Shown: positions 6,762 through 60,097 of the stretch, piece by piece
Numbering within the stretch: position 1 is the first letter of the stretch
Layout of the letters: the number at the start of each line of letters is the position of its first letter
Source: a virus
Lineage: Duplodnaviria; Heunggongvirae; Uroviricota; Caudoviricetes
Strand: one strand, 5' to 3'
Virus record (IMG/VR): IMGVR_UViG_3300014204_000143
DNA length: 64,000 bases
Notes under the pieces: generated by a model
What the model saw: the letters and a program-made list of their open reading frames with translations, nothing else
Databases searched by the model: none
Told to the model about the DNA's origin: nothing
Position numbers and translations under genes: made by a program

Positions 6762-9700
6762 ATGACTCAAAAAAATTACAATTCAATAGATAATCCCTAC
6801 GATAGTTTTTTAAATCGTACCGATGCTGGAGCGTCAACCGTTGTTAATAGTGGTCAGGAATATGGAGGGACAACTTTTACCGATAGTGGAAATGGTGGTT
6901 CGGCTAGTCCCAATGGTTCTCCAGATGTTTCTAGTCCTAATGATGTTTCTGGGGGTTCGATTCAAGGTTCAAGTTTTCAAAGTATCTGGTTAAAGGACTG
7001 GATTAAATCAAGAAATTACAAACCGAAATCTGTCGGTTTTTATATTGACGGTAAAACTGGTTACGCTGAGTTTGTGAATGTTTATGTGAGTGGTAACATT
7101 CAAGCTTTGTCTGGTTTGATTGGTGGATTTACAATTGGAGCGACAAACTTATCGGCAACCTCTGGTGGAAATACTACAATTGTGTCTAGTGGCTCAACTG
7201 CCTTTAGTGCTGGACCAACTGGTGCTCCAACTTTTTATGTTACTCAGGCTGGAGTTTTAAATGCAACTGGGGCGATTATTTCTGGAACATTAACTGCCAC
7301 AACTGGTTATATTGGAGGTTGGTTAATTAATGCAACTAATTTATCGGCAACTGGAATAATCTTAGACTCTCTAAATCAGCAAATTAAAGTTGGTGCTACT
7401 GACCCAATTATAATTGATGGTTTATTAAAAGAAATTGAAAGTAGTAATTATGTTTCGGGTGCTTTTGGTGCTGGATTCCACTTAGATAGTAATTTATTTG
7501 AAGTTGGTAATATTTCGTGTCGAGGGATGATACGAACTTCTGTATTTCAAAAAGATTTAATTAATGTGATGGGTGGAAGTTTTGTTGTTCTTGATGGTGA
7601 TATTTTAGATACAACGATGACTGCACTTGACACCGCAACTATTACAACCAAAGGAACGGTCAATTTTTCAATCAATGATATATTAAGAATTAAAGAAGAT
7701 ATTGACGATGAATGGTTTAGAGTTACAAACGTTTCTGGACATCCAACTTATGTTGTCACAAGAGACTTGGCTGGAATGTATCCATCAAATACAAATCCAT
7801 GCTGGACAAAGGGATCAACTATTGTAAATTATAGACAGAGTGGAGATGGTGGAGTTTTTATGACAGCAACAGAAACGGATGCACCTTATCTTAGTATTTT
7901 TGACCATGCAGGTTCTCCGTGGACTACGATTAATACTAGACTTAGACTTGGTAATTTAAACGGATTTTTAGGTTACTCTTCTGACTTATATGGAATTGCA
8001 ATTGGAGAAACCAATTCATACTTAAAATATGATACCGACAATGGATTAAGAATTAAAGGAGATATTACAATTACAGGGGGGAATGCTTCTGTAACATTTT
8101 ATGAATCAACTGAACCAGTATCTGGAATGAAGGCTGGTGATTATTGGGTTGATTCAGATGACAATTCTCTTCATGTATATCAGGGAGGTGTATGGGTACT
8201 TGTTGCCGCATCGGGAGTTAAAGTTTTTTCTGCTGAACCAACCACTCCTTATCATGTTGGAGATTTATGGGCAAGCGGAGTCTTTCTTAAAATATGTAAT
8301 CATGAACTACTAACTGGTGTTTATAATCCTTTAGACTGGAGTTATGCTACTGGATATACCGATGATACTGTAGCAAATTCTAAAATAAAAACGTTTATTC
8401 AAACAACAATTCCAACTTCTATTTCTGCTGGAGATTTGTGGATTGATTCCGATGATGGAAACAAACTTTATCGTGCAACTAATGCGGGGGATACAACAAT
8501 TGGTCCAACGGCGTGGGTAGTTGTTCCAATTGACTTTGCTAATATAAATGGTGCAACTAAACCAGAAAATAATGCTACCGTTGGAGCTACTTGGGGAACA
8601 AATCTTGTAAACATTCCAGGAACATTGGGAACTCCAACTGGAACTGGTTTGTTTCTTTCTTCCACTCATTTAGGTTTCTATGATGCTCCAAATTGGAAAA
8701 CATATATGGATAGTTATGGGAATTTTTATTTAGGAGGGACTTCTGGTAAATTACAGTGGGTTGCTGGAACAAATACTCTCACAATTACTGGTATTATAAA
8801 TGCCGATAGTGGAACAATTGGAGGATTTACTCTTGGTGCTGATTATATTCGTGATTCTGCTAATGGTGTTGGATTAGCATCAACTGTTAGTGGTGGAGAC
8901 GATGTTAGGTTTTGGGCTGGAGATACTTTTGCCAATAGAGATATTGCTCCATTTAGAGTTTATGAATCTGGTAATGTAGTTATGGAGAGAATCACAGCTT
9001 CAAATATTCAAGCATATGATGCTATTGTAGATATAAATGGTGGAGGAGACTATTATGATTTATATGGTGCAGTTTTAAATGGTGCTAAAAAGATATTTAT
9101 TAGAAACGGTGAATATATTTTGACTTCACAACTAGATATTGCACAAGAAAATGTAAAAATTGAAGGACAGTCTCGTGATAAAACAATCATAACTAGAGCA
9201 AGAGGTGGTAATAATATTTATTTTTTATTGGGTGATGGAACTACTCAATGGGACGTAACTAATCCAGCAGGAACAACATTTAGATACACATGGAATGGTC
9301 AAGGTTATGAACCAGATTTTTCTAAACTAAAAGATGGCTATAATATATTGATAGAATCAAGTAGTGGAACTAGTTATCTTGATTATGATAATACTGGAAA
9401 TTTTTGTATTACTGGAACTGGAACTACTTATTTTGAAATTACTAATTCTTCTGGTGTTGTAGAAACTGGAAAAACAATTGGACTTGACGATACTAGTTAT
9501 ATAAAGATAAGACCAAAAGCTATATATGGTTATGCTACTGGTGGTGGTGGTGGAAACCTAACAGAATATACAGTTACTAATCCAGTTGGAACAACGTGGA
9601 GATACACCTATACTGGAGTTGGAGGAGACCCAGATATAACTACTAGAGTTAAGGTTGGAATGTTAGTTGATATGATTGATTCTTCATTTTCTACTAATAA

Positions 9701-11708
9701 TAAAGGGCTATATACAGTAACTGGAATTGGAACAGATTATTTTGAAGTTGACAAAGTCGCAGGAACGGCAGAAAGTAAATATTGTTCAGGCATTTATTTA
9801 TATTCTAGTGTTATTGGTGATTCCACATCACAGTTTGATATTACCTGTCTTGATAGTGTTAAAAAAATATTTAGATATACCTGGGACGGGACTGGAACAG
9901 ACCCAAACATATTACAGTTGACTCATGGTGAGAATATCTATATAAAAGCACAAAATTTTTCTTCAGTGAATAATGGTCATTTTGTAATTTTAAATCCAAC
10001 ATCAACTACTTTTGATATTCATAATGAGATTGGAGTTGCAGAAAATAATAAAACAATTGGTACGGGATATATTATAAAAGTTAATACTTATCTTGGAGAC
10101 TCTTCAACTCAGTTTGATATAACAAATCCATCAACTGGACTGTGGAGATACACTTGGGACGGAACAGGAAAGAACCCACACATAGAAGAACTCGTATCTG
10201 TTTATGATACTATGTATATTAATGGTTCAACTTTTGCATCAAATAATAGGGGAAAAAGAGTTTATGTTTATGCCGTTGGAACTGATTATTTTGAAATTAA
10301 AACAGAGACAGGAACGGTTGAATCTAATAAAATTCTTGGAACTGGATATATTGAACACGTGAAAGGATATGTAATAAATAATTGGGGAGAAAAAACTGAA
10401 GTTAGCAATCTCAAATTTATAGAATCTGGAAACTATCGTTATGGTTGTTTGGTTTCTTTAAATAGCTTAAGTATTCATCATACCGATTTTGATACGCAAG
10501 AATCTCAAAGCTCTTTAATGCCATGTATAGTTGATAGGAGTGGTAGTCTAACATTAAAAAATTCTTATCTTATTAGTTATTCTAATTGTGTAGTTAGATT
10601 TCCCTACTCAGGGAATGAAACTGTTATAAGCGAAAATCATTTTGAATCTTATTATGGTTCAAGTGTTTATGAAACAATGACTTCATATAGAATAGGTGGA
10701 AGTTCTTCTAGATTTGATATAACTAATACTGCTGGAGATACATGGAGATATACATGGGATGGTACAGGGACTGACCCTGGAATATCTACTGGCTGGAGTT
10801 TTTATGCAGTTATTGTTTATGCTGAAAATTTTACAGGAAGAAATAATGGAATCTTTCAAATAACAGATTCTGGGCTTAATTGGTTTGAAGTTACAAACAT
10901 AAATGGATATGCAGAAAACAACAAAACAATTGGAGAAGGTTATATAGAAAAAATGATTTCTGGAGGTTTTTATAAGTTTGTTTTTGAAAAAAATTATTGT
11001 TATCGTGGTATGTATAATTCTTCCAGTAGTTATATTGCAAATATTCCAGGGGCATTAAATATTGTTGGAGACGGAACAGTTATAAGAGATAATACATTTT
11101 TTGCACAACCTTCAAATTATACTCCAGCAGTCAGACTATTTGGAGTTAATAGTATTGTCACTGGAAATAAATTTAATAGTTATCCTGAAAACTATTCTGC
11201 AAATGGTGGTCTTGGTATTCATATTACAGCCAAAGGCAGTTGTGTTATAGAGAATAATATATTTAATGCCCTAAGCATTGGAATTCTTTTAGATTATTAT
11301 GAAACAGACAATGGTTGTGGTCATGCATCTACAAGCAACAATCTGTTTAATTTTGTGGTTGGAGAAACTAATGGTTATGGTATATCAATTCTTTCCCCAA
11401 TTTCAAAAATGGTAATTTCTGGAAATCATCAATATTGTGGAGCTTCTTTAATTGACCAACAGTATGGTTCTTCTAATTTAACAGTAATAAATAATATTGT
11501 TACTAATTCTGCCGCAGAAGCCTTTTTAATGCAAAGTCTAACATATTCTGTCTTTAGTAATAATCAAACAAAAGATTGTTATCTTGGATATGACATTTCT
11601 GGAGCAGATTATTGTACGATTTTGGGCAATATATCTCAGGGTAACGCAAATTCAGATGACGTTGCTGGTATTACAAACAGCGAAACGGCTCACAATTTAT
11701 TCTTATAA
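6762..11708 (+). CDS. Giant tail fibre/tailspike. It has six ~95-aa repeat domains (9230-10956) and a C-terminal right-handed parallel beta-helix-like region (NNIFNALSIGIL..., ISGNHQYCG..., ~10960-11708).
   Basis: 1648-aa ORF. The internal motif FDITNP-x-GT-x-RYTWDGTG...NNG-F...GTDYFE...NKTIG-GY recurs six times. The C-terminal periodic motifs are typical of pectate-lyase-like tailspikes. Confidence 0.6.
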   Translation: MTQKNYNSIDNPYDSFLNRTDAGASTVVNSGQEYGGTTFTDSGNGGSASPNGSPDVSSPNDVSGGSIQGSSFQSIWLKDWIKSRNYKPKSVGFYIDGKTGYAEFVNVYVSGNIQALSGLIGGFTIGATNLSATSGGNTTIVSSGSTAFSAGPTGAPTFYVTQAGVLNATGAIISGTLTATTGYIGGWLINATNLSATGIILDSLNQQIKVGATDPIIIDGLLKEIESSNYVSGAFGAGFHLDSNLFEVGNISCRGMIRTSVFQKDLINVMGGSFVVLDGDILDTTMTALDTATITTKGTVNFSINDILRIKEDIDDEWFRVTNVSGHPTYVVTRDLAGMYPSNTNPCWTKGSTIVNYRQSGDGGVFMTATETDAPYLSIFDHAGSPWTTINTRLRLGNLNGFLGYSSDLYGIAIGETNSYLKYDTDNGLRIKGDITITGGNASVTFYESTEPVSGMKAGDYWVDSDDNSLHVYQGGVWVLVAASGVKVFSAEPTTPYHVGDLWASGVFLKICNHELLTGVYNPLDWSYATGYTDDTVANSKIKTFIQTTIPTSISAGDLWIDSDDGNKLYRATNAGDTTIGPTAWVVVPIDFANINGATKPENNATVGATWGTNLVNIPGTLGTPTGTGLFLSSTHLGFYDAPNWKTYMDSYGNFYLGGTSGKLQWVAGTNTLTITGIINADSGTIGGFTLGADYIRDSANGVGLASTVSGGDDVRFWAGDTFANRDIAPFRVYESGNVVMERITASNIQAYDAIVDINGGGDYYDLYGAVLNGAKKIFIRNGEYILTSQLDIAQENVKIEGQSRDKTIITRARGGNNIYFLLGDGTTQWDVTNPAGTTFRYTWNGQGYEPDFSKLKDGYNILIESSSGTSYLDYDNTGNFCITGTGTTYFEITNSSGVVETGKTIGLDDTSYIKIRPKAIYGYATGGGGGNLTEYTVTNPVGTTWRYTYTGVGGDPDITTRVKVGMLVDMIDSSFSTNNKGLYTVTGIGTDYFEVDKVAGTAESKYCSGIYLYSSVIGDSTSQFDITCLDSVKKIFRYTWDGTGTDPNILQLTHGENIYIKAQNFSSVNNGHFVILNPTSTTFDIHNEIGVAENNKTIGTGYIIKVNTYLGDSSTQFDITNPSTGLWRYTWDGTGKNPHIEELVSVYDTMYINGSTFASNNRGKRVYVYAVGTDYFEIKTETGTVESNKILGTGYIEHVKGYVINNWGEKTEVSNLKFIESGNYRYGCLVSLNSLSIHHTDFDTQESQSSLMPCIVDRSGSLTLKNSYLISYSNCVVRFPYSGNETVISENHFESYYGSSVYETMTSYRIGGSSSRFDITNTAGDTWRYTWDGTGTDPGISTGWSFYAVIVYAENFTGRNNGIFQITDSGLNWFEVTNINGYAENNKTIGEGYIEKMISGGFYKFVFEKNYCYRGMYNSSSSYIANIPGALNIVGDGTVIRDNTFFAQPSNYTPAVRLFGVNSIVTGNKFNSYPENYSANGGLGIHITAKGSCVIENNIFNALSIGILLDYYETDNGCGHASTSNNLFNFVVGETNGYGISILSPISKMVISGNHQYCGASLIDQQYGSSNLTVINNIVTNSAAEAFLMQSLTYSVFSNNQTKDCYLGYDISGADYCTILGNISQGNANSDDVAGITNSETAHNLFL

Positions 11709-11934: not shown

Positions 11935-11991
11935 TATAACTAATGTTATCCCCTTGGGTTGGCGTTAGTTATACATAACTAATGTTATAAT
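11933..11991 (+). promoter_or_regulatory. Single copy of the TTATCCC...TGGGTT...TTAGTTAT element plus extended -10 TGTTATAAT (11983-11991), upstream of ATG 12017
   Basis: Near-identical to 3316-3379. Palindromic arms ATAACTAA/TTAGTTAT flank the element. Confidence 0.45.
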
Positions 11992-12016
11992 TAACATATA
12001 AAGATAAATAAAATTT

Positions 12017-22222: not shown

Positions 22223-22912
22223 TTAATCCGCCCAAAAAAACGGAGTAGTGGTTGTGCTCGTACTGGTCGTAGTGCTTGTAGAGATATACTTCCCATTACA
22301 AACAGGACATTTCCAGAGGAACCATTTATTTGGTTCCTCTTTTGGGTCAAACTTAAGATGTATTTTAGCTCCACAAACAGGGCAATGATAAATTGGAAAG
22401 TTTTTTTTACACGTTTCCTTCTTTTTTGTATATGACTTTTGATAACAATCACGACTACAATATTTCTGTCTTTTTTTACCAGGGATAAATTCTTTACCGC
22501 ACCTTACACAAACTCTTTTGTTTTTTTCTACGTCCTTTTTAGGGACATACGATATTTCAAGATTTTCAATATCGTTATTATCCCGATTACCATCAATGTG
22601 TTTGAATCTTGTGCCTCTGCCAACAACACCATTATGATATTCCCACGTTGCTCTTGCCAGAGTTACTTTATCAGTAGTCCTTAACCATTGTCCATCGGGT
22701 TGTTTTGAATATTTATACCCATTAAATATAATAAAATCAAACTTTACCTTATTAGACATTTCCATCCCGAGTCTTCTCATCTTTATCCAGACAGAATTAT
22801 AGTTGAGTTTGAGTTCTCTTGTTGCCTCTTTAAGACTCGTTCCTTTCTTATATAACTCGTATATTTTTTTGATGTCTTCTTTTGTTATTATTTTTCTTTT
22901 AATCTCCCCCAT
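22223..22912 (-). CDS. HNH endonuclease with N-terminal HTH and C-terminal CxxC zinc ribbons (homing-endonuclease-like)
   Basis: HIDGNRDNNDIENL is an HNH core; the N-terminus has TSLKEATRELKLNYNSVW (HTH); the C-terminus has multiple CxxC pairs. Confidence 0.5.
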   Translation of the reverse strand: MGEIKRKIITKEDIKKIYELYKKGTSLKEATRELKLNYNSVWIKMRRLGMEMSNKVKFDFIIFNGYKYSKQPDGQWLRTTDKVTLARATWEYHNGVVGRGTRFKHIDGNRDNNDIENLEISYVPKKDVEKNKRVCVRCGKEFIPGKKRQKYCSRDCYQKSYTKKKETCKKNFPIYHCPVCGAKIHLKFDPKEEPNKWFLWKCPVCNGKYISTSTTTSTSTTTTPFFWAD

Positions 22913-31144: not shown

Positions 31145-31831
31145 CTATTTAGTTTTTTCTTCTTCCAATAATCCGTCACAAACTTCAGTCTTGAAGTCTG
31201 TTCCATATTTGTTTAATAACCAACCAAGAAATACTTTTTGTCCATCTTCAGTAAGAATACCGTCGCCGTTAGTGATTTCTAATTTTCTAAATGTTTTTTC
31301 AGGTTCTTTTAGAAATGCCTGAACAAATTTCTCTTTGATGTTCATAGTTTTATTATTTAATTGATTTATAATTTCTATTCTTCCACAATATCCTTCTGCT
31401 CCCCATTCACCATTAGCATGACCTTTATTTATATCCCACCCACATCCATAACCTGGAATATTTTTACCACGACCTATTTTACCGTCATCTCTTTTAATTG
31501 TTGCAATATCTCCTTCAATGTCAAAAACAGTTCCAGTATATGTTCCACCAGCATTATAAATTCCTTTTATTCTATCACCTACTTTTAATGTTATTTTTTC
31601 AAATTGTTCATCTGCATATTCAAGATATGACCAAGAGCAAGAAGCAGCTCTTCTACTACTATCAACTTTACCAGTTTCTGCAAAATAAAAACATGGGTTA
31701 CTTGTATTGTCATCTAGATAAAGTTTTACTACATCACCCCTTTTAAATGGTTCACAAACACTAACTATAACACGGAACTTTCTATTTACATCAATTCCTA
31801 ATTCTGTAGCTGTTTTATTTGGTTCAAACAT
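31145..31831 (-). CDS. Hypothetical protein whose N-terminal domain is paralogous to ORF 40031..40987
   Basis: MFEPNKTATELGIDVNRKFRVIV here versus NTFEPNKTATELGIDLTRKFRVVV in the 318-aa ORF. Confidence 0.45.
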   Translation of the reverse strand: MFEPNKTATELGIDVNRKFRVIVSVCEPFKRGDVVKLYLDDNTSNPCFYFAETGKVDSSRRAASCSWSYLEYADEQFEKITLKVGDRIKGIYNAGGTYTGTVFDIEGDIATIKRDDGKIGRGKNIPGYGCGWDINKGHANGEWGAEGYCGRIEIINQLNNKTMNIKEKFVQAFLKEPEKTFRKLEITNGDGILTEDGQKVFLGWLLNKYGTDFKTEVCDGLLEEEKTK

Positions 31832-31858
31832 ATATTTTTTATTTTAATTTATACTCCT

Positions 31859-31906
31859 AGTTTAACATACTAAAAACACCTTGTCAAGTAGTAAACTGTG
31901 GACAAC
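31859..31906 (-). promoter_or_regulatory. Sigma70-like promoter on the minus strand (TTGACA-17 nt-TAAACT) with an upstream TTGTCCACA (DnaA-box-like) site, driving ORF 31145..31831
   Basis: Reverse complement of 31859-31887 reads TTGACAAGGTGTTTTTAGTATGTTAAACT. The element is near-identical to 47029-47076 and, inverted, to 47451-47497. Confidence 0.5.
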
Positions 31907-32619
31907 TATTTTCCAGCAACCAAATTACCAGCCCTTAAAAGTGAATTAAATGTTCCTGCATCAGTCCACCATCCCCCCAATACATGACTCCCCATAGATC
32001 CATTTTTAACAAAGTAATTATTAACATCGGTAATTTCTAATTCACCTCTGCCTGATGGTTTTAGCGTTTTGATTACATCCCATACTTCTTTGTTGTAGAA
32101 ATATAAACCAGTGACAGCTAAATTACTTTTTGGGTCTTCTGGTTTTTCTTCAATACAGACAACTTTGCCATCTTCATTTATCTCAGCTACTCCGAATCTT
32201 TGTGGGTCATCAACTATCTTTAAAAAAATATTGGCGGAGTCGGATGTGCTTTGAAAATTTCTAACAAACCCAGCAATGTCATCCTCATAAATGTTATCCC
32301 CAAGAATAACAGCGACATCTTCGTCTCCAGCAAAACGCTCACACAGTCCCAACGCTTCTGCAATCCCTCCAGCCTCTTCTTGAACCTCATAAGAAAACTT
32401 AGCACCGAATGATTTACCAGAACCAAGCAAGTCTAAAAAGTTACCAGCGTTCCCCTTACCAGAAACAATCATGATTTCATTTATCCCTGACTTTGTTAGA
32501 GTTTCGATTGGATAATAAATCATCGGTTTGTCATACACTGGCAGTAAATGCTTGTTAAAAATACGAGTGCATTCACCCAGCCTACTACCAGTCCCTCCTG
32601 CGAGAATAATTCCCTTCAT
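31906..32619 (-). CDS. rmlA: Glucose-1-phosphate thymidylyltransferase (RmlA-like sugar nucleotidyltransferase, short form)
   Basis: MKGIILAGGTGSRL...LLPVYDKPMIYYPIETL..., ...EEKP..PKSNLAVTGLYFY and ...GELEITD.. match the RmlA family along the whole length. Confidence 0.8.
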   Translation of the reverse strand: MKGIILAGGTGSRLGECTRIFNKHLLPVYDKPMIYYPIETLTKSGINEIMIVSGKGNAGNFLDLLGSGKSFGAKFSYEVQEEAGGIAEALGLCERFAGDEDVAVILGDNIYEDDIAGFVRNFQSTSDSANIFLKIVDDPQRFGVAEINEDGKVVCIEEKPEDPKSNLAVTGLYFYNKEVWDVIKTLKPSGRGELEITDVNNYFVKNGSMGSHVLGGWWTDAGTFNSLLRAGNLVAGK

Positions 32620-41146: not shown

Positions 41147-41758
41147 TTAATTGTTATTTTTTTTGTCATTTAATTTAACGTTATTTTTAGTTATATCACT
41201 TACAATTTTTATTGTTCCGTCTGGTAACATTACTTCGTCACCAACTTTAAATAAATAAACGTATCCATATTCCTTAACTATCTCTTGTTTAAAAATATTA
41301 TGTATAAAATTTTTAATGTCTTGAGATGTTTTTTTGTCTATTATTTTTCCTTTTCCAAAAAGTATCAATTCGGGTATTACAAAGTCTCCAAACATTTCAT
41401 CAAATTGTTTTTCCCAATTTGTATTTATAAAATACTCCCAATAACCCAGCCTCTGACCTTCTTCTCGCCATTGTGAGACTCCTTGGGGGATGTTAACTTC
41501 TTTAATACCATCTCCTTTATAGCACATAACATCCTTAATTTCAAAACAATCAGTGCAATAATTTCCATAATCTGTTTCAAACCAAGTCTCCATACATTCG
41601 CTATTAAAATCACATAACATTTTACCGCATTTATCACAATAGATTCCATCGTTTCCACTTTCTTTAAGTTTTTTTAATAACTCACTATCTGGATGTAATT
41701 CATCAGAAATATGGCTATGAATTATTGGTTCTTTATATGAATATTCTTTTTCAGTCAT
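41147..41758 (-). CDS. Cys-rich hypothetical protein
   Basis: 203 aa with multiple CxxC motifs (CDKCGKMLCD..., CTDC...). Confidence 0.35.
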   Translation of the reverse strand: MTEKEYSYKEPIIHSHISDELHPDSELLKKLKESGNDGIYCDKCGKMLCDFNSECMETWFETDYGNYCTDCFEIKDVMCYKGDGIKEVNIPQGVSQWREEGQRLGYWEYFINTNWEKQFDEMFGDFVIPELILFGKGKIIDKKTSQDIKNFIHNIFKQEIVKEYGYVYLFKVGDEVMLPDGTIKIVSDITKNNVKLNDKKNNN

Positions 41759-42593
41759 TTTAGCATTAAATTATTTATTATTAAATATTTTGAAAGTAAA
41801 GATTGCTCCTGTTATAAACATACATAATCCTAATATAACAAAAGAGATAACTCTATTTATCATTCCATAATCAAACAAACAAAACCCAGTATAAAGGAAA
41901 GATGGAGTAAGAAGTACATATATAATTTCAAGAACCAACATAACTGTATCCTTTATCATTTTAATAAGTTTAAATTAGTTAGTTCACTCTCAAGAATATC
42001 ACACAAACAACTCAAGGCTTCTAAATCACAGAGTTTATCTTTTTTATAGTCTTTGAGGATTCTTTTAAAGATTGAATACCTTTTAACCACTCTTTTATTT
42101 ATTTCTTTTTCGGTCATTTTAGTATTGTTAACTTATTTAAGAATAATATTATTTAATTTCTTTTCAACACCTATCCAGTCGTCTTCGCCATAATCGCAAC
42201 TATCAATCCATTCAATATCGTGACAAATATCTGCCATAAGATTAAGTATTTTTGCAACTTTTTTTCTAGATTCACGATGTTTATCTCTTTCTGGTTTTTT
42301 ATAAAAGCTATCGGCAATATCGTTTAATTTTGAATATGCGTAATCGTGTGAACCTCCTGACATAGTTTTTTAGTTTAATATTGTTAAATTTATAAATTGT
42401 TTGCTTTATTCTTCTAAAAGTTTTACATATTCTTCAAAAGATAATTTCGGATATACTGGCTTTTCAAATAATTCTTTCATAAAATTATTAAGAGTTCCTT
42501 GTGTTAAATACTTTTCATTTTCAATCTTTTCTATTTGTTCAATATCTTTTGATATACTATCTTCAAGGGCTTCGCATATAAGTTTTTCTATAC

Positions 42594-43025
42594 TCATTTT
42601 AAAATCGTTAAATTTATAAATTGTTTCCCGAACTCTTTTGCCCGTAAATAGTCTTCTTCGGTATCACCGCCGTATAAATCGAATCGTCCGTCATTTTCTG
42701 GGGCGGTTCTGTCATCACAGAAGTAGGTTTTACCTCTGATAATGACCACAGATCCGAGTTCATACCTTCTCGGACAAGCGACTGAGTGATTACTTCGGGG
42801 TGACTGTCCCATAGCGTTGATGCAAGTCTTGTTAGGGCAAGTCTCAAGTTTTGAATACATTGTAACATAGGCGTTTATACTTTCAAATTTTAAGTTATTA
42901 GTGACTTTAGGGATTGGCATTGCTAGTGGGTCTGGATAACACTCTTTAAATTCTTTTAAGAAAAACAATGATGTGAAAAGTAGGATATTGGTCATTGTTA
43001 GGATCAGGATGATGTAGTATTTCAT
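42594..43025 (-). CDS. Secreted 3D-domain / lytic-transglycosylase-like cell-wall hydrolase (start moved to MKYYIILIL...)
   Basis: N-terminal signal/TM helix. C-terminal ...VACPRRYELGSVVIIRGKTYFCDDRTAPENDGRFDLYGG resembles the 3D (MltA-like) domain. The annotated N-terminal MVNSHLRNK is a translation of the upstream repeat element. Confidence 0.5.
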   Translation of the reverse strand: MKYYIILILTMTNILLFTSLFFLKEFKECYPDPLAMPIPKVTNNLKFESINAYVTMYSKLETCPNKTCINAMGQSPRSNHSVACPRRYELGSVVIIRGKTYFCDDRTAPENDGRFDLYGGDTEEDYLRAKEFGKQFINLTILK

Positions 43026-43032
43026 TTTATTT

Positions 43033-43080
43033 CTTAGATGGCTATTTACCATCGGTTAATTTATTATTTTATCAGCGATT
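43033..43080 (-). promoter_or_regulatory. Family-D element copy 1 (TTAACCGATGGTAAATAGCCATCTAAG... on the minus strand), ending 8 nt before ATG 43025
   Basis: One of four copies at 43033, 43365, 43501 and 44009. Contains the palindrome GATGG-N7-CCATC. Confidence 0.45.
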
Positions 43081-43358
43081 TTTAATAATCTTTCGATTTC
43101 TTGCTCTGATTGTTTTATGTTTTGTTTTTCTTGTTCGATCCCTTCAAATATTTCATTGGGGGACATATAATCAGCAAAGTCATTTTTTATCACGCACCTT
43201 GGGGAGGGTGGGTTGATAATCTGGTGAGGTGCGTAATTTTTGTTATATTCTTTCCAAGATGTCTTAAAGTCGCAACGAGCACATTCAGCAACTAAACTAT
43301 GTAGGATTATATGATAACCACATCTGGGACATTCACCACTTTTTAGTTCTTCTTTCAT
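43056..43358 (-). CDS. Small Zn-ribbon / coiled-coil protein, paralogue of 44032..44229
   Basis: CPRCGY...CARC, and C-terminal IERLLKIADKIIN versus IEKLLSIADKIIN in the paralogue. Confidence 0.4.
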   Translation of the reverse strand: MKEELKSGECPRCGYHIILHSLVAECARCDFKTSWKEYNKNYAPHQIINPPSPRCVIKNDFADYMSPNEIFEGIEQEKQNIKQSEQEIERLLKIADKIIN

Positions 43359-43364
43359 ATATTT

Positions 43365-43380
43365 CTTAGATGGCTATTTA
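43365..43380 (-). promoter_or_regulatory. Family-D element copy 2 (truncated: TAAATAGCCATCTAAGAAATAT), ending 6 nt before ATG 43358
   Basis: Lacks the left palindrome arm but keeps the ATG-proximal core. Confidence 0.4.
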
Positions 43381-43391
43381 ATAATTTGGTA

Positions 43392-43494
43392 ATGTTGATA
43401 ATTTAATTCTCATTTGTAATTCTGTTTCAAATGTGTAAAAAATTACACCACCTATTGTTATTACATATCCTAAAATTAAATCTTCTGTTTTCAT
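43392..43494 (-). CDS. Unlisted mini-ORF (~33 aa, hydrophobic) just downstream of element copy 3
   Basis: ATG at 43494 (minus): MKTEDLILGYVITIGGVIFYTFETELQMRIKLS. It sits in the same position relative to the repeat as the other genes. Confidence 0.3.
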
Positions 43495-43500
43495 AATGTT

Positions 43501-43525
43501 TTAGATGGCTATTTACCATCGGTTA
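43501..43525 (-). promoter_or_regulatory. Family-D element copy 3
   Basis: TAACCGATGGTAAATAGCCATCTAAAACATT on the minus strand, then ATG at 43494. Confidence 0.4.
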
Positions 43526-43526
43526 G

Positions 43527-43739
43527 TTAATAAATTGAATAAGGTTTATCTTTATTTCCCCAACCTTTAGGGAAGTTTAACCTTTCTTGTTTAATTTTTT
43601 CTTTCAATTCGTCTTTCCATCTTTTCTCAATATAGCCAAGCATTTCATCTCTAGTGAGCCAATCTGTAGTATAAGCATCAACTACCGTAGACCATTGACG
43701 ATATTTATTATCTTTTTTTCTAAATTTTATACATCTCAT
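43527..43739 (-). CDS. Hypothetical small protein
   Basis: 70-aa ORF. Confidence 0.3.
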   Translation of the reverse strand: MRCIKFRKKDNKYRQWSTVVDAYTTDWLTRDEMLGYIEKRWKDELKEKIKQERLNFPKGWGNKDKPYSIY

Positions 43740-43743
43740 ATAT

Positions 43744-44004
43744 TTATTCTTTAATTAGTTCTTTTAATTTTGATGAAATGGTGTCTATTAATTCCTCTCT
43801 GGTGTTAAATTCGTGAACATTTATATCTTTAATTTCTTCCACAATCATCTTTATAAGTGAGATTTGGCGAGAGGAGATGAATTGTTTAAGATTTTTTCTA
43901 ATTGTTTCGTGTCCTTGTGATTCTGCATCTAATTCATAATCAGGGAATCTATCCTCAAATTCCTTCTTACCTTCCTCTATAAAGTTTTTAATTTTTTCTT
44001 CCAT
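43744..44004 (-). CDS. Hypothetical small protein (start moved to MEEKIKNF)
   Basis: The annotated MVNSHLRY prefix is repeat-derived. The true ATG at 44004 lies 5 nt after element copy 4. Confidence 0.4.
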   Translation of the reverse strand: MEEKIKNFIEEGKKEFEDRFPDYELDAESQGHETIRKNLKQFISSRQISLIKMIVEEIKDINVHEFNTREELIDTISSKLKELIKE

Positions 44005-44008
44005 ATAT

Positions 44009-44065
44009 CTTAGATGGCTATTTACCATCGGTTAATTTATTATTTTATCAGCGATTGATAATAAT
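44009..44065 (-). promoter_or_regulatory. Family-D element copy 4 (extended ~57 bp, identical to copy 1, including the 3' end of the upstream paralogous gene)
   Basis: cttagatggctatttaccatcggttaatttattattttatcagcgatt is shared with 43033-43080. Confidence 0.45.
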
Positions 44066-44229
44066 TTCTCGATTTCTTGATTGGCGGTATCAATTTTCCA
44101 TTTCTCAAGAGTGATTGCCGAATAAATCTCATTGGGCGATTTACAATCACTTTTATTATAAGTAATCTGCTTATCTCTATCTTCTAGATTGATATTGCTA
44201 TATTTTTGGTAAAATTCGTGAAGTTTCAT
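44032..44229 (-). CDS. Small coiled-coil protein, paralogue of 43056..43358
   Basis: C-terminal EIEKLLSIADKIIN. Confidence 0.4.
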   Translation of the reverse strand: MKLHEFYQKYSNINLEDRDKQITYNKSDCKSPNEIYSAITLEKWKIDTANQEIEKLLSIADKIIN

Positions 44230-44231
44230 AA

Positions 44232-44522
44232 TTATTTAGTTAAAAGTTCAGGATTTTCAAAAATCTTTTTTATCTTCTCCATATTATCTAAGTTTATTTT
44301 ATCTTTTAATTTTTCTAATTCATTAAAACTTCTAAGCTTATTGATAAAATCTTTACTCATTTTTTTGGTGACATCTATTGCTCGTAATTCATATACCTTA
44401 CCATTACATTTATTGCAATCGCAAAATAAGTGTGTTTTTCTACTAAAAATATTTGGAATTTCTTCCCAATAATTTCCATTTGGGCAAAATTCATATTTTC
44501 CATTTAAACTAAATCTTTTCAT
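44232..44522 (-). CDS. Small Zn-finger protein
   Basis: CPNGNY...HLFCDCNKCNG. Confidence 0.3.
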   Translation of the reverse strand: MKRFSLNGKYEFCPNGNYWEEIPNIFSRKTHLFCDCNKCNGKVYELRAIDVTKKMSKDFINKLRSFNELEKLKDKINLDNMEKIKKIFENPELLTK

Positions 44523-44803
44523 AATTTTGTTTTAGTTAAAAATTTAATAAACGACTCCCAATGTCTCTGACTTAATAAATCACATTCTTGACTTTCATCG
44601 ACATCGAAAACTTTTAAATTTTCTTTGGTATCTTTATTCATACAATTCTCTTCTAAATACTGAAAAACTTTATGAATAAACGAAAATTCTACTTTTTTAT
44701 TGTCAAAAACTTTCTCGACAGATTTGAATCTTCGTCTTTGTTCCTGACACCAAGCCTCCCATTCGGAGCTGTTAGTGATTGTGTTGTAAAATGATTCGTT
44801 CAT
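44519..44803 (-). CDS. Hypothetical small protein
   Basis: 94-aa ORF with 4-nt overlaps at both ends. Confidence 0.3.
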   Translation of the reverse strand: MNESFYNTITNSSEWEAWCQEQRRRFKSVEKVFDNKKVEFSFIHKVFQYLEENCMNKDTKENLKVFDVDESQECDLLSQRHWESFIKFLTKTKL

Positions 44804-45039
44804 ATTATTTTAATTATTGGCTCTAACTTTTCAATTTTTATAACAGTAGTTTTTTTTCTTAAAAAATCCCAATAATCATTTTTACATACTGCTATTTTAG
44901 CAACACTAACTTCTTTTTTACCACCAACAACGCAAGAATATATTTTTAATACAATACCCATAAATTCTTCTTTTTTATTTCCAAAGCCAGCTGGTAATGT
45001 ATGTATCCATTTTACTCCTTGTCCAACTTTTATTTTCAT
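44800..45039 (-). CDS. Hypothetical small protein
   Basis: 79-aa ORF. Confidence 0.3.
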   Translation of the reverse strand: MKIKVGQGVKWIHTLPAGFGNKKEEFMGIVLKIYSCVVGGKKEVSVAKIAVCKNDYWDFLRKKTTVIKIEKLEPIIKII

Positions 45040-45115
45040 ATTATTTTAATTATTGGCTCGATTATCACTTAGACAGAAAGCCTGAAATCACCTAACGGCT
45101 CTGTTACCAAATTTA

Positions 45116-45313
45116 TTATTGAATTGATTGTATTTCTAAATTAAAGTTTTTTGCAATTCTATATAATGCTACCATCATTACATCCATATCCATTTTAGTT
45201 TCATATTTATCTTCATCTATACAACGCGTAGTCTTATTTTCACTTTTTTGTAATCCTTTTGCAAAATCCCATAATGCTGATACCAATTCTTCTTGTTTAT
45301 TTATATTTTTCAT
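45116..45313 (-). CDS. Hypothetical small protein
   Basis: 65-aa ORF. Confidence 0.25.
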   Translation of the reverse strand: MKNINKQEELVSALWDFAKGLQKSENKTTRCIDEDKYETKMDMDVMMVALYRIAKNFNLEIQSIQ

Positions 45314-45340
45314 AATATTATTTTACTATTTTAATTTATT

Positions 45341-45429
45341 TGGAGGTCTTGGTTGGGAGTCGAACCCAAATACCTTGTATGTGGCTGTTCCTAACCACTA
45401 CGCTCTATCCAAATTGAGCTACCAAGACC
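45341..45429 (-). tRNA. tRNA gene (isotype unresolved, possibly His-like with a G-1 nucleotide). The anticodon region is unusually long.
   Basis: Reverse complement reads G-GTCTTGG TA GCTC AATTTGGATA GAGC ... TTGGG TTCGACT CCCAA CCAAGAC C. There is a perfect 7-bp acceptor stem, a canonical D-arm and a TPsiC arm (GGGTTCGACTCCC). The segment between the D-arm and T-arm is ~9 nt longer than standard. Confidence 0.6.
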
Positions 45430-45465
45430 ACGTTGTCCCAACCAACTTGGCTGAGACAAAGTTGT

Positions 45466-45750
45466 TTATAACTCGATTCTATTTCGTAAATCATCAATAA
45501 TATCATTTATTCTTTCAACGAAATCAATATCTTTTTGGATTTCCTCAGCTAATTTACATTCTCTTACTCCTCTGTCTTCGTGGACATCTTTTAGTGTTTC
45601 TGATGTCAAAACACTTGATAATTGTAATGTCAAAGAAGCAACATTTTCATCTAATCTCTGGAGTTCTTTATCAAAATTTGACATTACTTTTTTGATTTCT
45701 GGTGTTTTGCCAATTTCCTGACCTGTGAAAGTTTGTTCAAAATTTTTCAT
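45466..45750 (-). CDS. Hypothetical protein preceded by a family-C element
   Basis: 94-aa ORF. Element copy at 45758-45787. Confidence 0.35.
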   Translation of the reverse strand: MKNFEQTFTGQEIGKTPEIKKVMSNFDKELQRLDENVASLTLQLSSVLTSETLKDVHEDRGVRECKLAEEIQKDIDFVERINDIIDDLRNRIEL

Positions 45751-45757
45751 ATTTTTT

Positions 45758-45787
45758 TATTTATCCCCTACTTAAATTTGAGAGGCT
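45758..45787 (-). promoter_or_regulatory. Family-C element copy 1 (TTTATCCCCTACTTAAATTTGAGAGGC, degenerate hairpin)
   Basis: Matches 60065-60097 and 60629-60660. Lies 8 nt upstream of ATG 45750. Confidence 0.4.
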
Positions 45788-45825
45788 ATTTTACTATTTT
45801 AATTTTTTGACCGACCATATAAATT

Positions 45826-46521
45826 TTACATACTAATAAATCTACCTAATTTATTTCTTTTTGAATTATATTTTTTAGAAAACACCTTATCTAAGTCTAA
45901 ACATTTTAGTATTCTATATCTAGCTGTTTCATACGGTATATTATATTTTTTTACCCAATACATAAGAGGTTTAGTTATTCCTTTATATGTTATTAGATTA
46001 TTGCATCTTTTATTACTTGCCTGTTCGCTCATTGTTACCCATTGACAATTTTTTTTAGAATAATTACCACTATTATCAATTCTATCTATAGACGTTTTCC
46101 TATCTCCATATTTTTTGGAATGCTTTGTATAACTTTCATACATATCATTTTTAAATTCTTCAAAGTTTTTCCACTCACATTTTATATTCCGTCCACCATA
46201 ATTTTTATAAGATATTGAATTTTTATTACAGGTTCTTGATTTTATAGCATACCATATATTATAAAATCTAGTCTTAGACATATTATGTTTTTTCCATTTG
46301 TATTTTAAACATCCACAACTTTTAGTATTTCCATTTATAAGATATGCTGTCTTTACTATTGCTTTATTTCCACAATCACACTTACAAACCCAATACGCAT
46401 TTCTGTTTTTTATGTGTGAAAATTTTATTGCTGTTAATTTATTAAATTTTTTTCCAGTAATATTTTTAATATTTTTATTCATATTCTTGTTCTTTTTTAT
46501 CTCTAAACAATATCCCCTCAC
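45826..46521 (-). CDS. Cys-rich protein with an HNH_3-like homing-endonuclease signature
   Basis: CKCDCGN...CGC at the N-terminus; ...SIDRIDNSGNYSKKNCQWVTMSEQASNK resembles the H-N-N motif of phage HNH_3 endonucleases. Confidence 0.4.
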   Translation of the reverse strand: MRGYCLEIKKNKNMNKNIKNITGKKFNKLTAIKFSHIKNRNAYWVCKCDCGNKAIVKTAYLINGNTKSCGCLKYKWKKHNMSKTRFYNIWYAIKSRTCNKNSISYKNYGGRNIKCEWKNFEEFKNDMYESYTKHSKKYGDRKTSIDRIDNSGNYSKKNCQWVTMSEQASNKRCNNLITYKGITKPLMYWVKKYNIPYETARYRILKCLDLDKVFSKKYNSKRNKLGRFISM

Positions 46522-46625
46522 CTGTGTCGTTTGCTAATTTTAGTTTGTTCATAGTTTTATTTTTTTTAATTATATCTTTTAAGAAATAAGGATAAAAAGC
46601 GGGTGTTAACATATTTATTTGTTAA

Positions 46626-47003
46626 TTAAAATATTTTTTCTAAAATTACTCTTATCCAATATGACATAAAATATGCACGAAGTTCAGTATCGTCTTTTCC
46701 TAAATCTCTAGCTTTTATCATATTGTCTAAATAATGTTGTAACTCGTGACATAAATAAGCAATACTTTGTGGAGATTTATCAAAGGTTTTTATCCAAATA
46801 AGATTATTATGTTTTCCATTATTATCAACAATAGAAAAACATTGTCCCTGTATATTCTCCCATGAATAAGGAACTACAAACTCCATATCTTTTCTGCCAC
46901 TTTCTTTTTTAAATATTTTAACTATTTCGTCAGCGTGACAATTTATTATAAGATGTAATGAATTTTCAAATAAATCTTTTTCAAAATAATAATAATTTTT
47001 CAT
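46626..47003 (-). CDS. Small HExxH-motif protein (putative Zn-metallopeptidase-like, ImmA/IrrE or SprT-like)
   Basis: LCHELQHYLD contains HExxH. It is the first gene behind promoter copy B2. Confidence 0.35.
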   Translation of the reverse strand: MKNYYYFEKDLFENSLHLIINCHADEIVKIFKKESGRKDMEFVVPYSWENIQGQCFSIVDNNGKHNNLIWIKTFDKSPQSIAYLCHELQHYLDNMIKARDLGKDDTELRAYFMSYWIRVILEKIF

Positions 47004-47028
47004 AAAACTTTGTTAATAACCTATAAAC

Positions 47029-47076
47029 AGTTTAACATACTAAAAACACCTTGTCAAGTGGTAATCTGTGGATAAC
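47029..47076 (-). promoter_or_regulatory. Sigma70-like promoter on the minus strand (TTGACA-17-TAAACT) with an exact DnaA-box 9-mer (TTATCCACA, seen as ctgtggataa on plus) 10 nt upstream of the -35
   Basis: Reverse complement: GTTATCCACAGATTACCACTTGACAAGGTGTTTTTAGTATGTTAAACT. Drives 46626..47003. Confidence 0.55.
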
Positions 47077-47136
47077 TTATAAATCAATTAGTTAAAAACG
47101 AATGTTATACTTAAATTATAATTAAATAAAATCAAA

Positions 47137-47418
47137 ATGGAACAAAATCTTTACAGCACTAGAGACTTAATTGAGGCCGCCTCCTTAATCGCTCTAAAAT
47201 TTCCCATGGTAAATATCGACTACCAGTCAGAAGACACAAAACTTGTCGGTTACTTCGTTTTTGAAGATAGTCCAGAATTACAAGAAATGGTTATCAAATC
47301 TTTATCAAAGCAATTAGCCTTTGAGCCGAGAGAATTTAATAGTATTATTAAAAGTCTCAAAGCTCAATTAGCCAATACAAAAAAAAGTCCGAGTAGTAAA
47401 TATTCGGGGAGCTACTAA
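47137..47418 (+). CDS. Hypothetical protein (first plus-strand gene after the divergence point)
   Basis: 93-aa ORF. Confidence 0.35.
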   Translation: MEQNLYSTRDLIEAASLIALKFPMVNIDYQSEDTKLVGYFVFEDSPELQEMVIKSLSKQLAFEPREFNSIIKSLKAQLANTKKSPSSKYSGSY

Positions 47419-47450
47419 GAAACTCTTTAGTTTTTTTTATTACGTTTGAC

Positions 47451-47497
47451 TTATCCACAGGACATATCTTGACAAGGTGTTTTTGTTGTAGTATAAT
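47451..47497 (+). promoter_or_regulatory. Consensus sigma70 promoter (TTGACA 47469-47474, 17-nt spacer, TATAAT 47492-47497) with an exact DnaA box TTATCCACA (47451-47459) upstream. It drives the tRNA-like locus.
   Basis: Seen directly: ttatccacag gacatatc TTGACA aggtgtttttgttgtag TATAAT. Confidence 0.6.
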
Positions 47498-47643
47498 GGT
47501 AGTGATTTCTTCGAAATCAAAAAAACTATTTCAGTAATCATCCAGTTCTCATACTTCTGGATGGTTATAGTGGGTTAGAAAAGTAGCAATTCGCAAGCCC
47601 CATAAGCTTGAGACACAGGTGCAAATCCTGTACCCGCCACCAA

Positions 47644-47736
47644 GCCACTTAGTAGTTTAATGGTAGAAAAACCAGAGGAAAAACACCCAGCGTAAGCTCG
47701 TGGAGATTGTTGGTTCGAGTCCAACTAGTGGCCCCA
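47644..47736 (+). tRNA. tRNA-like gene (~93 nt incl. encoded CCA). It has a canonical T-arm and acceptor stem, with a long D/anticodon/variable region (type II tRNA, or one carrying an insert).
   Basis: 5' GCCACTT pairs with 3' TAGTGGC (6/7). T-arm GTTGG TTCGAGT CCAAC is canonical, then discriminator C and CCA. The D-loop region AGTTTAATGGTAG contains the conserved GG. The anticodon stem could not be folded confidently by eye. Confidence 0.45.
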
Positions 47737-47834
47737 ATAATTAGGCATAAAAAACATGAAAAAGTTTGTAAAAAGTTCATTGGGTTGTTTTTATATAAGT
47801 TGCGTCATGTCTTCTTAAATGCCTAAACAGCCCA

Positions 47835-48143
47835 GTGATTTTTTTATATAACAAAATAATTATGAATCTAATAGAACACCGCCGACAAATTTATGACACT
47901 ATTGACAACATGTTTCAGGTGACAATGACTCCTGAACAGCTTAAGATTATTTCTAATTGCCTTAAACGTTACGCTATCCACTATTCGGAATCGGCTATCA
48001 AAACGATTCACGAACTGACTGAAGCCTTAGCGTCTAGAAAAGAGTCAAAAAAACAACCAAAACAAGTAAAAAAAGAAATTAAAAGAGTTCCTGTGATGGA
48101 AAAAACACCAGTTTATCCAAGAATAAGGTGTGCTAGATATTAG
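47835..48143 (+). CDS. Hypothetical protein
   Basis: 102-aa ORF (the true start may be the internal MNLIEH). Confidence 0.3.
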   Translation: MIFLYNKIIMNLIEHRRQIYDTIDNMFQVTMTPEQLKIISNCLKRYAIHYSESAIKTIHELTEALASRKESKKQPKQVKKEIKRVPVMEKTPVYPRIRCARY

Positions 48144-48269
48144 GGGTGTCAATCAACGAATGTTATAATTAAAGTGCAGTTGATTAAATACATTTAATTA
48201 TAACGCTTTGAAAAGCTGGTTCAACTGCAAATGTAGCCAGCTACTCATAGCGTTTTTAATTATAAAAAC

Positions 48270-48767
48270 ATGTCGTTAATAGAAGTTAAGACCCTAAATA
48301 AGTATATAATACCAAGTTTTTCTGGAGAAAATAAATATATAATTTATTTTTTAATTAGTAATGAAACCATTGTTTATGTAGGTCAAACAGAGTGTGGTTT
48401 AAGAAGAATTGGCGGACATTTTGGGTTTAAAGATTTTGATAGTTTTACATTTACTCCAGCACCATCAGATAAAAACGAAAGATTAAAATTAGAGGAACAA
48501 TATATTTTAAAATACCAACCAAAGTATAATAAAATAACTGAAAGAAAAACATTAATTTCAAAAGGATATATATCAATTGATTGTGCAATTAAAAAATATT
48601 ATAATAATCTATCTAATAAATTAAAATATAACGATTTCAAGAAATGGTTAATTGGTTTAGAAGTTAGCCTTGACTGTATAAAATTAAAATCTCGTGACGG
48701 GTGGGGCAAAATAGACATCTTTTTTATAAAATCAGAGTTAGAAAAAGAAATTAAAAAATTAATCTAA
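48270..48767 (+). CDS. GIY-YIG nuclease (homing-endonuclease-like)
   Basis: KYIIYFLISNETIVYVGQTECGLRRIGGH...ERLKLEEQYILKYQPKYN carries GIY...YIG, R, E and N in the canonical spacing. Confidence 0.6.
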   Translation: MSLIEVKTLNKYIIPSFSGENKYIIYFLISNETIVYVGQTECGLRRIGGHFGFKDFDSFTFTPAPSDKNERLKLEEQYILKYQPKYNKITERKTLISKGYISIDCAIKKYYNNLSNKLKYNDFKKWLIGLEVSLDCIKLKSRDGWGKIDIFFIKSELEKEIKKLI

Positions 48768-60064: not shown

Positions 60065-60097
60065 TTTATCCCCTACTTAAATTTGAGGGGTTAATTT
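60065..60097 (-). promoter_or_regulatory. Family-C element copy 2 (TTTATCCCCTACTTAAATTTGAGGGGTTAATTT), 8 nt upstream of ATG 60056
   Basis: Perfect 5-bp inverted repeat CCCCT/AGGGG with an 11-nt loop. Confidence 0.45.

Follow-up and report, generated by a model that had tools for sequence, protein, structure and literature searches.

What holds one short palindromic element almost letter for letter identical in front of unrelated small genes, and at which level is it read? The question is raised by the virus record IMGVR_UViG_3300014204_000143, from which a stretch of 64 kb (the window, ~31% G+C, a portion of a large phage genome) was analyzed; within 1 kb of it an element of ~30 nt occurs four times, each time just ahead of an ATG. 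We found that it is a genuine cis element linked to start codons, as had been proposed from the sequence alone, and that it is private to one clade of uncultivated phages, strongly selected and directional. Judging from its sequence pattern, we favor taking the asymmetric core, TAAATAGCCATCTAA[G/A]A, for an mRNA-level start-region signal over a phage-specific promoter, a tentative choice to which we give somewhat less than an even chance.

The sequence-only reading had reported four copies within 1 kb, and the count stands: the 15-mer TAAATAGCCATCTAA has 4 exact matches in the window against 0.03 expected (100 shuffles), all on the minus (gene) strand, at 43034-48, 43366-80, 43501-15 and 44010-24, while GATGG-N7-CCATC occurs exactly 3 times against 0.58 expected with one mismatch allowed. 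The full palindrome is present in three of the four copies, and its left arm is gone in one.

43033-43059 (element plus spacer 43026..43059), minus strand: copy 1, full form, TTAACCGATGGTAAATAGCCATCTAAG, that is, TTAACC GATGG TAAATAG CCATC TAAG
43365-43380 (with spacer 43359..43380), minus strand: copy 2, short form, (AAATTAT)TAAATAGCCATCTAAG, AAATTAT replacing the left arm
43500-43526 (with spacer 43495..43526), minus strand: copy 3, full form, CTAACC GATGG TAAATAG CCATC TAAA
44009-44035 (with spacer 44005..44035), minus strand: copy 4, full form, TTAACC GATGG TAAATAG CCATC TAAG

Copies 1 to 4 are followed by spacers of 7 nt (AAATAAA), 6 nt (AAATAT), 5 nt (ACATT) and 4 nt (ATAT) and then by ATGs at 43025, 43358, 43494 and 44004, respectively. 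The start-codon proximity described earlier is therefore correct, but the distance is 4-7 nt and not 5-8 nt, a one-base counting difference. Upstream genes end at the same places: the TAA of TTAACC is the stop codon of gene 43056-43358 at copy 1 (43056-43058) and of gene 44032-44229 at copy 4 (44032-44034), the TAA of TAAATAG (43378-43380) closes an upstream 38-aa open reading frame (ORF) at copy 2, and gene 43527-43739 has its stop directly 5' of copy 3. The core had also been said to survive in the truncated copy 2, where TAAATAGCCATCTAAG is indeed present without the left arm. All copies appear within one apparent long operon that has a canonical promoter 3-4 kb upstream of them. Chance or an assembly artifact is ruled out by the shuffle counts and by the same element in independent assemblies.

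Junctions in other phages were collected by an exact-match scan of IMG/VR and metagenome contigs and from the contexts of homologues of the 86-aa gene that follows copy 4 (fam-1), the latter gathered without reference to the element. The element was found at ~56 non-redundant junctions in related metagenomic phage contigs, as a consensus block of ~26-35 nt, [C/T]TAACC-GATGG-TAAATAG-CCATC-TAA[G/A]A..-ATG, which fills the gap between co-oriented genes and has its information content limited to TAACC...ATG. All copies are co-oriented with the flanking genes, and an ATG, never GTG or TTG, stands 4-8 nt after CTAA in 54/56 junctions. The core is invariant, the sole exceptions being four single-base variants, and it is intact both in the ~37 junctions with a left arm and in the ~19 without one, whose forms run AATTAT-TAAATAGCC..., TTAAT-TAAATAGCC... 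or GAG-TAATAGCC.... Where the adjoining homologous downstream-gene DNA is 77-88% identical, the core is 22/22 identical, and the flanking proteins that these phages have in common with the window are ~23-69% identical.

Distribution is clustered. Over all 64 kb, the four copies remain inside 1 kb, and relatives carry 2-6 copies each in the same region; three of the five long contexts from the element-independent sample hold 2-3 elements within 2.5 kb. In one contig, six copies crowd into 1.4 kb among ORFs of 53-107 aa, upstream of GroES/GroEL, a placement shared by the window and two other contigs. Some carrier contigs (~45 kb) encode an SPP1-type portal protein, which indicates that the joint is common to phages of differing architecture. 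Outside this group, none of the 9 exact matches in 185,579 species-representative bacterial and archaeal genomes, a set in which the host is not identified, is a true copy, and the element was not found in 50,697 deposited phage records, where neither it nor its region has a DNA-level match. The absence from cellular genomes and deposited phages indicates that this is no generic host signal.

The lack of a Shine-Dalgarno (SD) sequence, stressed in the sequence-only reading, is true as a fact but does not distinguish the element: an SD-like tetramer lies upstream of just 3/36 long ORFs of the window, A/T-rich runs precede the starts, and the absence is a property of the whole phage and no special trait of the element genes. 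The closest protein matches come from Bacteroides, Flavobacterium and Cellulophaga phages and from phage csAssE-Sib (helicase 42%, GroEL 50% identical), and together with the translation signals they point to a Bacteroidota host. At one junction of a related contig (L125, ~10280-10320), a more distant fam-1 relative is followed by TAAGGAGAGGTAGGATATAT-ATG, which is SD-like and without the element; from this sequence, the hosts of related phages may differ in their translation-initiation habits.

Which part of the element carries the signal? It contains stops in three frames (TAA of TAACC, TAA and TAG of TAAATAG), and the upstream ORF terminates within or just before it at nearly all junctions, in any frame. 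A tail -ELTDGK, common to at least 8 unrelated protein families, is encoded by the element itself, and the ATG inside GATGG is in frame with the real start in ~1/3 of copies, as by chance. This chance rate shows that the MVNSHLR/K N-terminal extensions, which arise from that ATG, are spurious, just as the sequence-only reading had supposed. That the -ELTDGK tail or the MVNSHLR head is conserved as protein was rejected on the same grounds, since every frame is used.

Folding the full copies as RNA gives a hairpin of 6 bp, GAUGGU-AAAUA-GCCAUC (-7.6 kcal/mol, z about -3), and copy 2 forms none (dG 0). The stem alignment contains 0 double (compensatory) changes, 3 one-sided G-U changes and 6 unpaired cells, 5 of them at the terminal pair; RNA covariation of the stem, with no power here, gave no support and was set aside. 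Because the arm is missing in about a third of the junctions and no compensatory change is seen, the palindrome is not the essential part. It is thermodynamically real yet evolutionarily dispensable, and the conserved unit is asymmetric; the palindrome does not form the conserved functional core of the element. Nor does the element have the format of an intrinsic terminator (a G+C-rich hairpin plus a U-run): on the sense strand the stem is followed by UAAGAAAUAU, with no U-tract, and terminator-like matches on the antisense strand number 2 against 2.0 expected. A known RNA family was also dismissed, for an Rfam search of 41500-48500 at E<=1 gave tRNA-Met as its only significant match, and the four others, among them a weak tRNA-Sec model at the tRNA-Pro locus, fell below gathering scores.

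A hairpin of another kind ends a gene array in contig L232 (12433-12467, plus strand), where GAAATAGCCATCATAAGGGTGGCTATTTTTAG forms 9 bp followed by a T-run; it is built from the core 11-mer AAATAGCCATC and a near-perfect inverted copy, a composition that makes an element-derived terminator possible. In the window there is, besides, a second hairpin family unrelated in sequence, TTAAC-CCCCU...AGGGG-AUAAAAUAAAA-AUG, with the layout (AAATTAAC)CCCCU-loop-AGGGG, AUAAA(A)UAAAA, ATG and three exact copies of CTCAAATTTAAGTAGGGGATAAA.

45760-45782, minus strand: second hairpin family, exact CTCAAATTTAAGTAGGGGATAAA
60065-60087, minus strand: second hairpin family, exact CTCAAATTTAAGTAGGGGATAAA, upstream stop inside the loop
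60629-60651, minus strand: second hairpin family, exact CTCAAATTTAAGTAGGGGATAAA

The upstream stop lies inside the loop in at least the copy at 60065-60087, and the family repeats the layout of the element (stop in the hairpin, A-rich spacer, ATG). The two give the most stable start-proximal hairpins among 86 gene starts. The second family was not found in IMG/VR.

Is the element a promoter? On that account the loop TAAATA would be a -10-like element for a phage-encoded or phage-modified RNA polymerase, transcription would start in CCATCTAA with leaders of ~10 nt or less, and every accessory cassette would bring its own promoter, in the way of the promoter-early stem-loop (PeSL) cassettes or of the repeats of halovirus HF2. 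We consider this doubtful, though it is a serious contender. Contiguous directional conservation over ~26 nt is typical for phage-polymerase promoters, absence from cellular genomes is consistent with a phage-private specificity, and two perfect copies have no ATG after them (L172 at 12212, L233 at 10418). Arrays of small ORFans with a copy before each also recall PeSLs, for which promoter activity has been demonstrated by experiment (PMC2839356), and the HF2 intergenic repeats, as the accessible text of PMC8707807 presents them, are a precedent.

The promoter signals that the phage does possess look different. None of the four copies has a sigma-70-type match, canonical matches occur elsewhere in the same 7 kb, and TAAATA lacks the final T of the -10 hexamer; a host sigma-70 promoter was rejected on this basis, as was an intrinsic terminator for want of a match at the element. 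The Bacteroidetes-type TTTG/TAnnTTTG promoter does not occur in the element and shows no enrichment in the window. What the phage carries are canonical TTGACA-17-TATAAT/TAAACT repeats in real intergenic spacers, with leaders estimated at ~20-25 nt (start assumed ~7 nt after the -10 element); three copies share a unit of ~50 nt, TT[A/G]TCCACAG-N7-CTTGACAAGGTGTTTTT-N7-TAAACT/TATAAT.

31872-31887, minus strand: core of promoter-like repeat, extended unit ~31830-31910
47042-47057, minus strand: core of promoter-like repeat, extended unit ~47000-47085
47469-47484, plus strand: core of promoter-like repeat, extended unit ~47441-47500

The plus-strand copy, ahead of tRNA-Met, matches TTGACA-17-TATAAT at 12/12 positions, and the pair at 47 kb, arranged divergently, makes up an inverted repeat of 34 nt. 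A TTGACG/TTGGCG...TATAAT unit occurs twice upstream of structural genes. These repeats are of the E. coli -35/-10 type, which conflicts with the Bacteroidota-leaning signals; the Bacteroidetes promoter consensus published by Bayley et al. in 2000 reportedly differs from that type. Right after 10303 in contig L226, from a related phage, TTATCCAC-TTGACA...TATACT stands at a gene junction. In the window a 67-nt repeat, 87% identical between 3322-3388 and 11946-12012 (plus strand), precedes the structural-gene starts 3388 and 12017. Its sequence, TTATCCC.TTGGGTTG[A/G]CGTTAGTTAT..ATAACTAATGTTATAAT, contains a -35/-10-like pair with a palindromic spacer that is possibly an operator.

Further points count against a promoter. 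About a third of the copies have lost everything upstream of TAAATAG, which would be the upstream half of a T7-like promoter; the whole ~17-nt upstream recognition region of such a promoter is not conserved, and the short forms carry unrelated sequence 5' of TAAATAG. An encoded single-subunit RNA polymerase or alternative sigma factor had been thought worth looking for, but Pfam, PHROGs and PDB sequence searches and a DxDxD motif search identified neither gene in the 64-kb window, which is shorter than the source contig (92.7 kb) and in which the five largest ORFs are unannotated. The copies crowd into one ~1-kb region and are not spread across a temporal gene class. Finally, a promoter leaves the tight ATG spacing unexplained, since 4-8 nt is what a ribosome-binding or operator element needs and a promoter has no such need.

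A different kind of answer is that the element serves recombination. The sequence-only reading had suspected a duplicated gene-plus-element cassette from the genes beside copies 1 and 4, and the case proved stronger than first seen, with a 76-nt duplication at 93% identity in the window and shuffled gene partners in many related phages.

43028..43103, minus strand: duplication arm A, copy 1 and the terminal ~45 nt of gene 43056-43358 (...ERLLKIADKIIN*)
44004..44079, minus strand: duplication arm B, copy 4 and the terminal ~45 nt of gene 44032-44229 (...EKLLSIADKIIN*)

Homology between the arms stops at the 3' edge of the core, and the products of the two genes are 46% identical over 59 aa (E = 1e-12). 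In the other phages, the pentapeptide-repeat gene (MKIYKT...) has 5 different upstream partner families and the fam-1 gene at least 6 different downstream ones; homology between contigs begins or ends at the core edges, and the element may be present in one phage and absent from another at an orthologous junction. The element is thus the joint for gene-cassette exchange in a hyperplastic region.

Such a joint need not regulate anything. The element could be a neutral or selfish linker (three-frame stops plus a start context) that recombination or gene conversion between co-infecting phages keeps identical, an explanation we hold to be improbable. It would account for the shuffled neighbors, the breakpoints at the element edges, the presence or absence at orthologous junctions, the deletion derivatives (explicable by slippage between TAAAT repeats), the in-frame capture as C-terminal tails of unrelated proteins and the inverted core duplication behind the terminator-like hairpin of L232. 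It does not fit well with the single orientation and the position before ATG: apart from L232, no copy is found within a gene, between convergent genes or inverted. In addition, the core is perfect even in short forms that offer merely ~22 nt of homology, and it is unchanged where the flanking homologous DNA has diverged to 77-88% identity. Other kinds of repeat were tried and rejected. A CRISPR-like or tandem array does not apply because the "spacers" are ORFs of ~20 to 450 aa that include known enzymes, and a mobile element like a miniature inverted-repeat transposable element does not apply because the copies have one orientation and are tied to start codons.

The same region of the window has exact 19-23-nt repeat pairs just upstream of small-gene starts on the minus strand, namely, GAGCCAATAATTAAAATAATATG (44801-44823/45037-45059), AAACAATTTATAAATTTAAC (42383-42402/42607-42626) and AAATTAAAATAGTAAAATA (45319-45337/45787-45805). 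These three pairs (44801-45805 and 42383-42626) are window specific, and as sequences they suggest that the small-gene region often undergoes local duplication or recombination.

Recognition of the element as DNA by a protein was the last rival weighed. GATGG-N7-CCATC, or the asymmetric core, would then be a repressor operator or "stoperator," or else a recombinase or endonuclease target. The stoperators of Cluster A mycobacteriophages, 13 bp long and asymmetric, lie in short intergenic gaps in the orientation of transcription, and the bound repressor blocks elongation there. Besides this parallel, the 17-bp inverted repeat has the usual format of a dimeric helix-turn-helix operator, and several homing-endonuclease-like genes are nearby. 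On the other side, the conserved unit is asymmetric, with a palindrome spacer as invariant as the arms and one arm dispensable; we saw neither an integrase nor a repressor module in the window, and with an endonuclease target repeated in its own genome, the phage would destroy itself. We judge a DNA-level site to be quite improbable.

The mRNA-level start-region signal is preferred because of the tight ATG spacing, the core that nearly reaches the ATG, the dispensable upstream half, the one-operon setting and the SD-less system. In the mechanism that we propose, the core would be read on the mRNA within the translation-initiation region of the downstream cistron. Without SD pairing in the host, a trans-acting factor, most likely phage encoded, would bind to it and set the translation, or the cleavage and stability, of the accessory cistrons. 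The optional 6-bp hairpin (GAUGGU/GCCAUC) would be an accessory module: ribosomes finishing the upstream ORF would have to melt it, thereby coupling the two cistrons. Identical copies would double as crossover points at which homologous recombination inserts, deletes or swaps accessory genes. There are phage precedents for such control. In T4, RegA sites lie at AUGs and RegB cleaves early mRNAs at ribosome-binding sites, and both proteins, which the phage encodes, recognize short, degenerate sequences located at or beside the start codons of some of the (early) phage mRNAs. By analogy, the element would also be a start-codon-adjacent sequence read by a phage protein; it differs in being 26 nt long and invariant, and no RegA- or RegB-like protein was identified here.

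Several observations weigh against this preference. Most genes of the same phage start without the element, which is therefore not required for translation as such. The two perfect copies that lack an adjacent ATG fit a promoter or a processing site better, and the stem has no compensatory changes to show. Perfect identity across diverged phages could be kept by frequent recombination instead of by a reader. No candidate reader protein was found; the fam-1 protein was considered for this part, and its alignment, an AlphaFold model (predicted local distance difference test score, pLDDT, 81; three helices) and a PDB fold search gave no informative match. A more specific version of the proposal, in which the core is a phage-private, SD-independent translation start signal, read by a phage-encoded factor or a phage-modified ribosome and gated by the hairpin through the upstream ORF so as to select or time accessory-cistron translation, seems to us rather unlikely. 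As an equally new alternative, the loop could embed a promoter for an unrecognized phage transcription factor, giving near-leaderless mRNAs.

How does the element compare with known systems? The nearest likeness is to the SAS/ESAS repeats of Cluster K mycobacteriophages, described in 2011 (PMC3203893), whose function was still unverified in 2025 according to the accessible text of PMC12699233. In the accessible text of the 2011 report (PMC3203893), these are short asymmetric repeats in a single orientation, 3-7 bp before starts that are almost always ATG, ahead of different gene families and sometimes with the upstream stop inside the repeat; they are confined to the non-structural genome part and absent from host genomes (as the element is from the cellular genomes scanned), and an additional inverted repeat, lacking RNA-hairpin support, accompanies about half of the copies. 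All this is like the element. The differences, on the same text, are that the SAS consensus, GGGATAGGAGCCC, has an SD core, whereas TAAATAGCCATCTAA has no GGAG and belongs to an SD-less system; that ESAS is a separate upstream pair of imperfect 17-bp repeats, whereas the arms here are 5-6 bp with a loop of 5-7 nt and overlap the core; that SAS copies are dispersed (11-19), whereas the element is clustered at 2-6 per region; and that phage lineage and host are others. The link to cassette shuffling documented here is a further point of comparison with the SAS/ESAS account as far as that text reaches.

PeSL cassettes of T4-type phages (Arbiol et al. 2010, PMC2839356; Comeau et al. 2014, PMC4122927) share with the element a stem-loop, a place beside ORFans in hyperplastic regions and an extent from stop to start, and they are homologous-recombination sites that insert, delete or replace the genes they flank, as the shuffled junctions indicate for the element. 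They differ in being ~100 bp long and in possessing an SD sequence, a demonstrable sigma-70 -35/-10 promoter and a terminator with a strong G/C stem-loop, whereas the element has ~30 nt, no -35/-10 match, a weak and often absent hairpin without a U-tract and no SD. The HF2 repeats (29 and 58 bp) are likewise short repeats between virus genes and carry expression signals; by the accessible text of PMC8707807, they belong to an archaeal virus with TATA-type promoters and have reporter-tested promoter activity, and they show no sequence similarity to the element. In view of its unrelated sequence, the lack of SD and of -35/-10 and the weak, optional stem-loop, the element is a counterpart of SAS and PeSL and a member of neither.

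It is a second, independent example of start-associated repeats, in an unrelated, SD-less phage lineage, and the same anatomy in two lineages argues that such elements do something general. The many natural recombinants show that a 26-nt signal can act as a universal joint for swapping accessory genes among phages of differing size and architecture. As a practical gain, the motif can mark both this phage clade and the plastic region in its genomes, and it corrects gene calls by exposing false MVNSHLR N-termini and element-encoded -LTDGK tails.

The genes at the four junctions are small, and no PHROG family was assigned to the window's cassette genes or to the gene upstream of copy 4.

42594..43025, minus strand: gene after copy 1, 143 aa, hydrophobic N-terminus, no Pfam or PHROG family
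43056..43358, minus strand: gene after copy 2 and before copy 1, 100 aa, Cys-rich N-terminus, paralogue of 44032-44229
43378..43494, minus strand: ORF after copy 3, 38 aa, hydrophobic
43744..44004, minus strand: gene after copy 4 (fam-1), 86 aa, three predicted helices
44032..44229, minus strand: gene before copy 4, 65 aa, paralogue of 43056-43358

The true start of the first of these is ATG 43025 and not 43052. fam-1 is the family that most often adjoins the element in other phages, and its 86-aa protein has an identical copy on a 92.7-kb JGI contig. The element-encoded tail -LTDGK is the C-terminus of 20/57 fam-1 homologues in the sample gathered independently of the element. At the 3' side of fam-1, the window (43740-43746) has no element, several phages have one, and another contig has a relic. 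The 'SSLVNGEK' C-termini of some homologues resembled a divergent element and turned out not to be one. Elsewhere, cassette genes encode Dam and N6/N4 DNA methylases, YopX, a sugar epimerase and many ORFans. The commonest element-linked downstream cassette is a pentapeptide-repeat protein of 131-186 aa (repeats such as NINAW and DINAR), which follows the element in L010, L076, L136 and L141 and lies at 10729-11124 in L232, with a repeat number that varies by contig.

In the window as a whole, a structural block occupies 0.4-22 kb on the plus strand, and a long minus-strand block at 22-47 kb carries the genes for SbcC, a helicase, a GroEL-type chaperonin and phosphoesterases, after which come many small ORFs; RtcB, an RNA ligase, a DnaB-like helicase, a primase and two tRNAs are encoded as well. 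Three homing-endonuclease-like genes were noted, one of them 1.8 kb upstream of the element cluster.

22223-22912, minus strand: free-standing homing-endonuclease-like gene, HNH_3 (Pfam)
45826-46521, minus strand: HNH-like gene, identified by eye, no Pfam match
48270-48767, plus strand: GIY-YIG-like gene, weak Pfam match under the curated cut-off

The tRNA-Pro (anticodon AGG, 45341-45429, minus strand) is unusually long at 89 nt, and directly after tRNA-Met (47569-47642) a tRNA-like stretch within 47644-47734, uncalled by ARAGORN, ends in the T-arm motif GGTTCGAGTCC. On the plus strand, imperfect 12-nt periodic repeats (TCAACTTCAAGTTCTAC...) form long runs at 1-300, 2330-3200 and 5060-5225, within or just upstream of ORFs 420-3275 and 5238-6761, and, judged by eye, they would specify Ser/Thr-rich low-complexity tracts. 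A module of ~70-230 nt, found in 4-5 copies that are 61-81% identical (3746-3978 versus 9241-9482, 9863-10178 and 10705-10934, plus strand), is common to a 466-aa structural protein and a 1648-aa giant protein, and this sequence pattern suggests a repeated domain exchanged between virion proteins.

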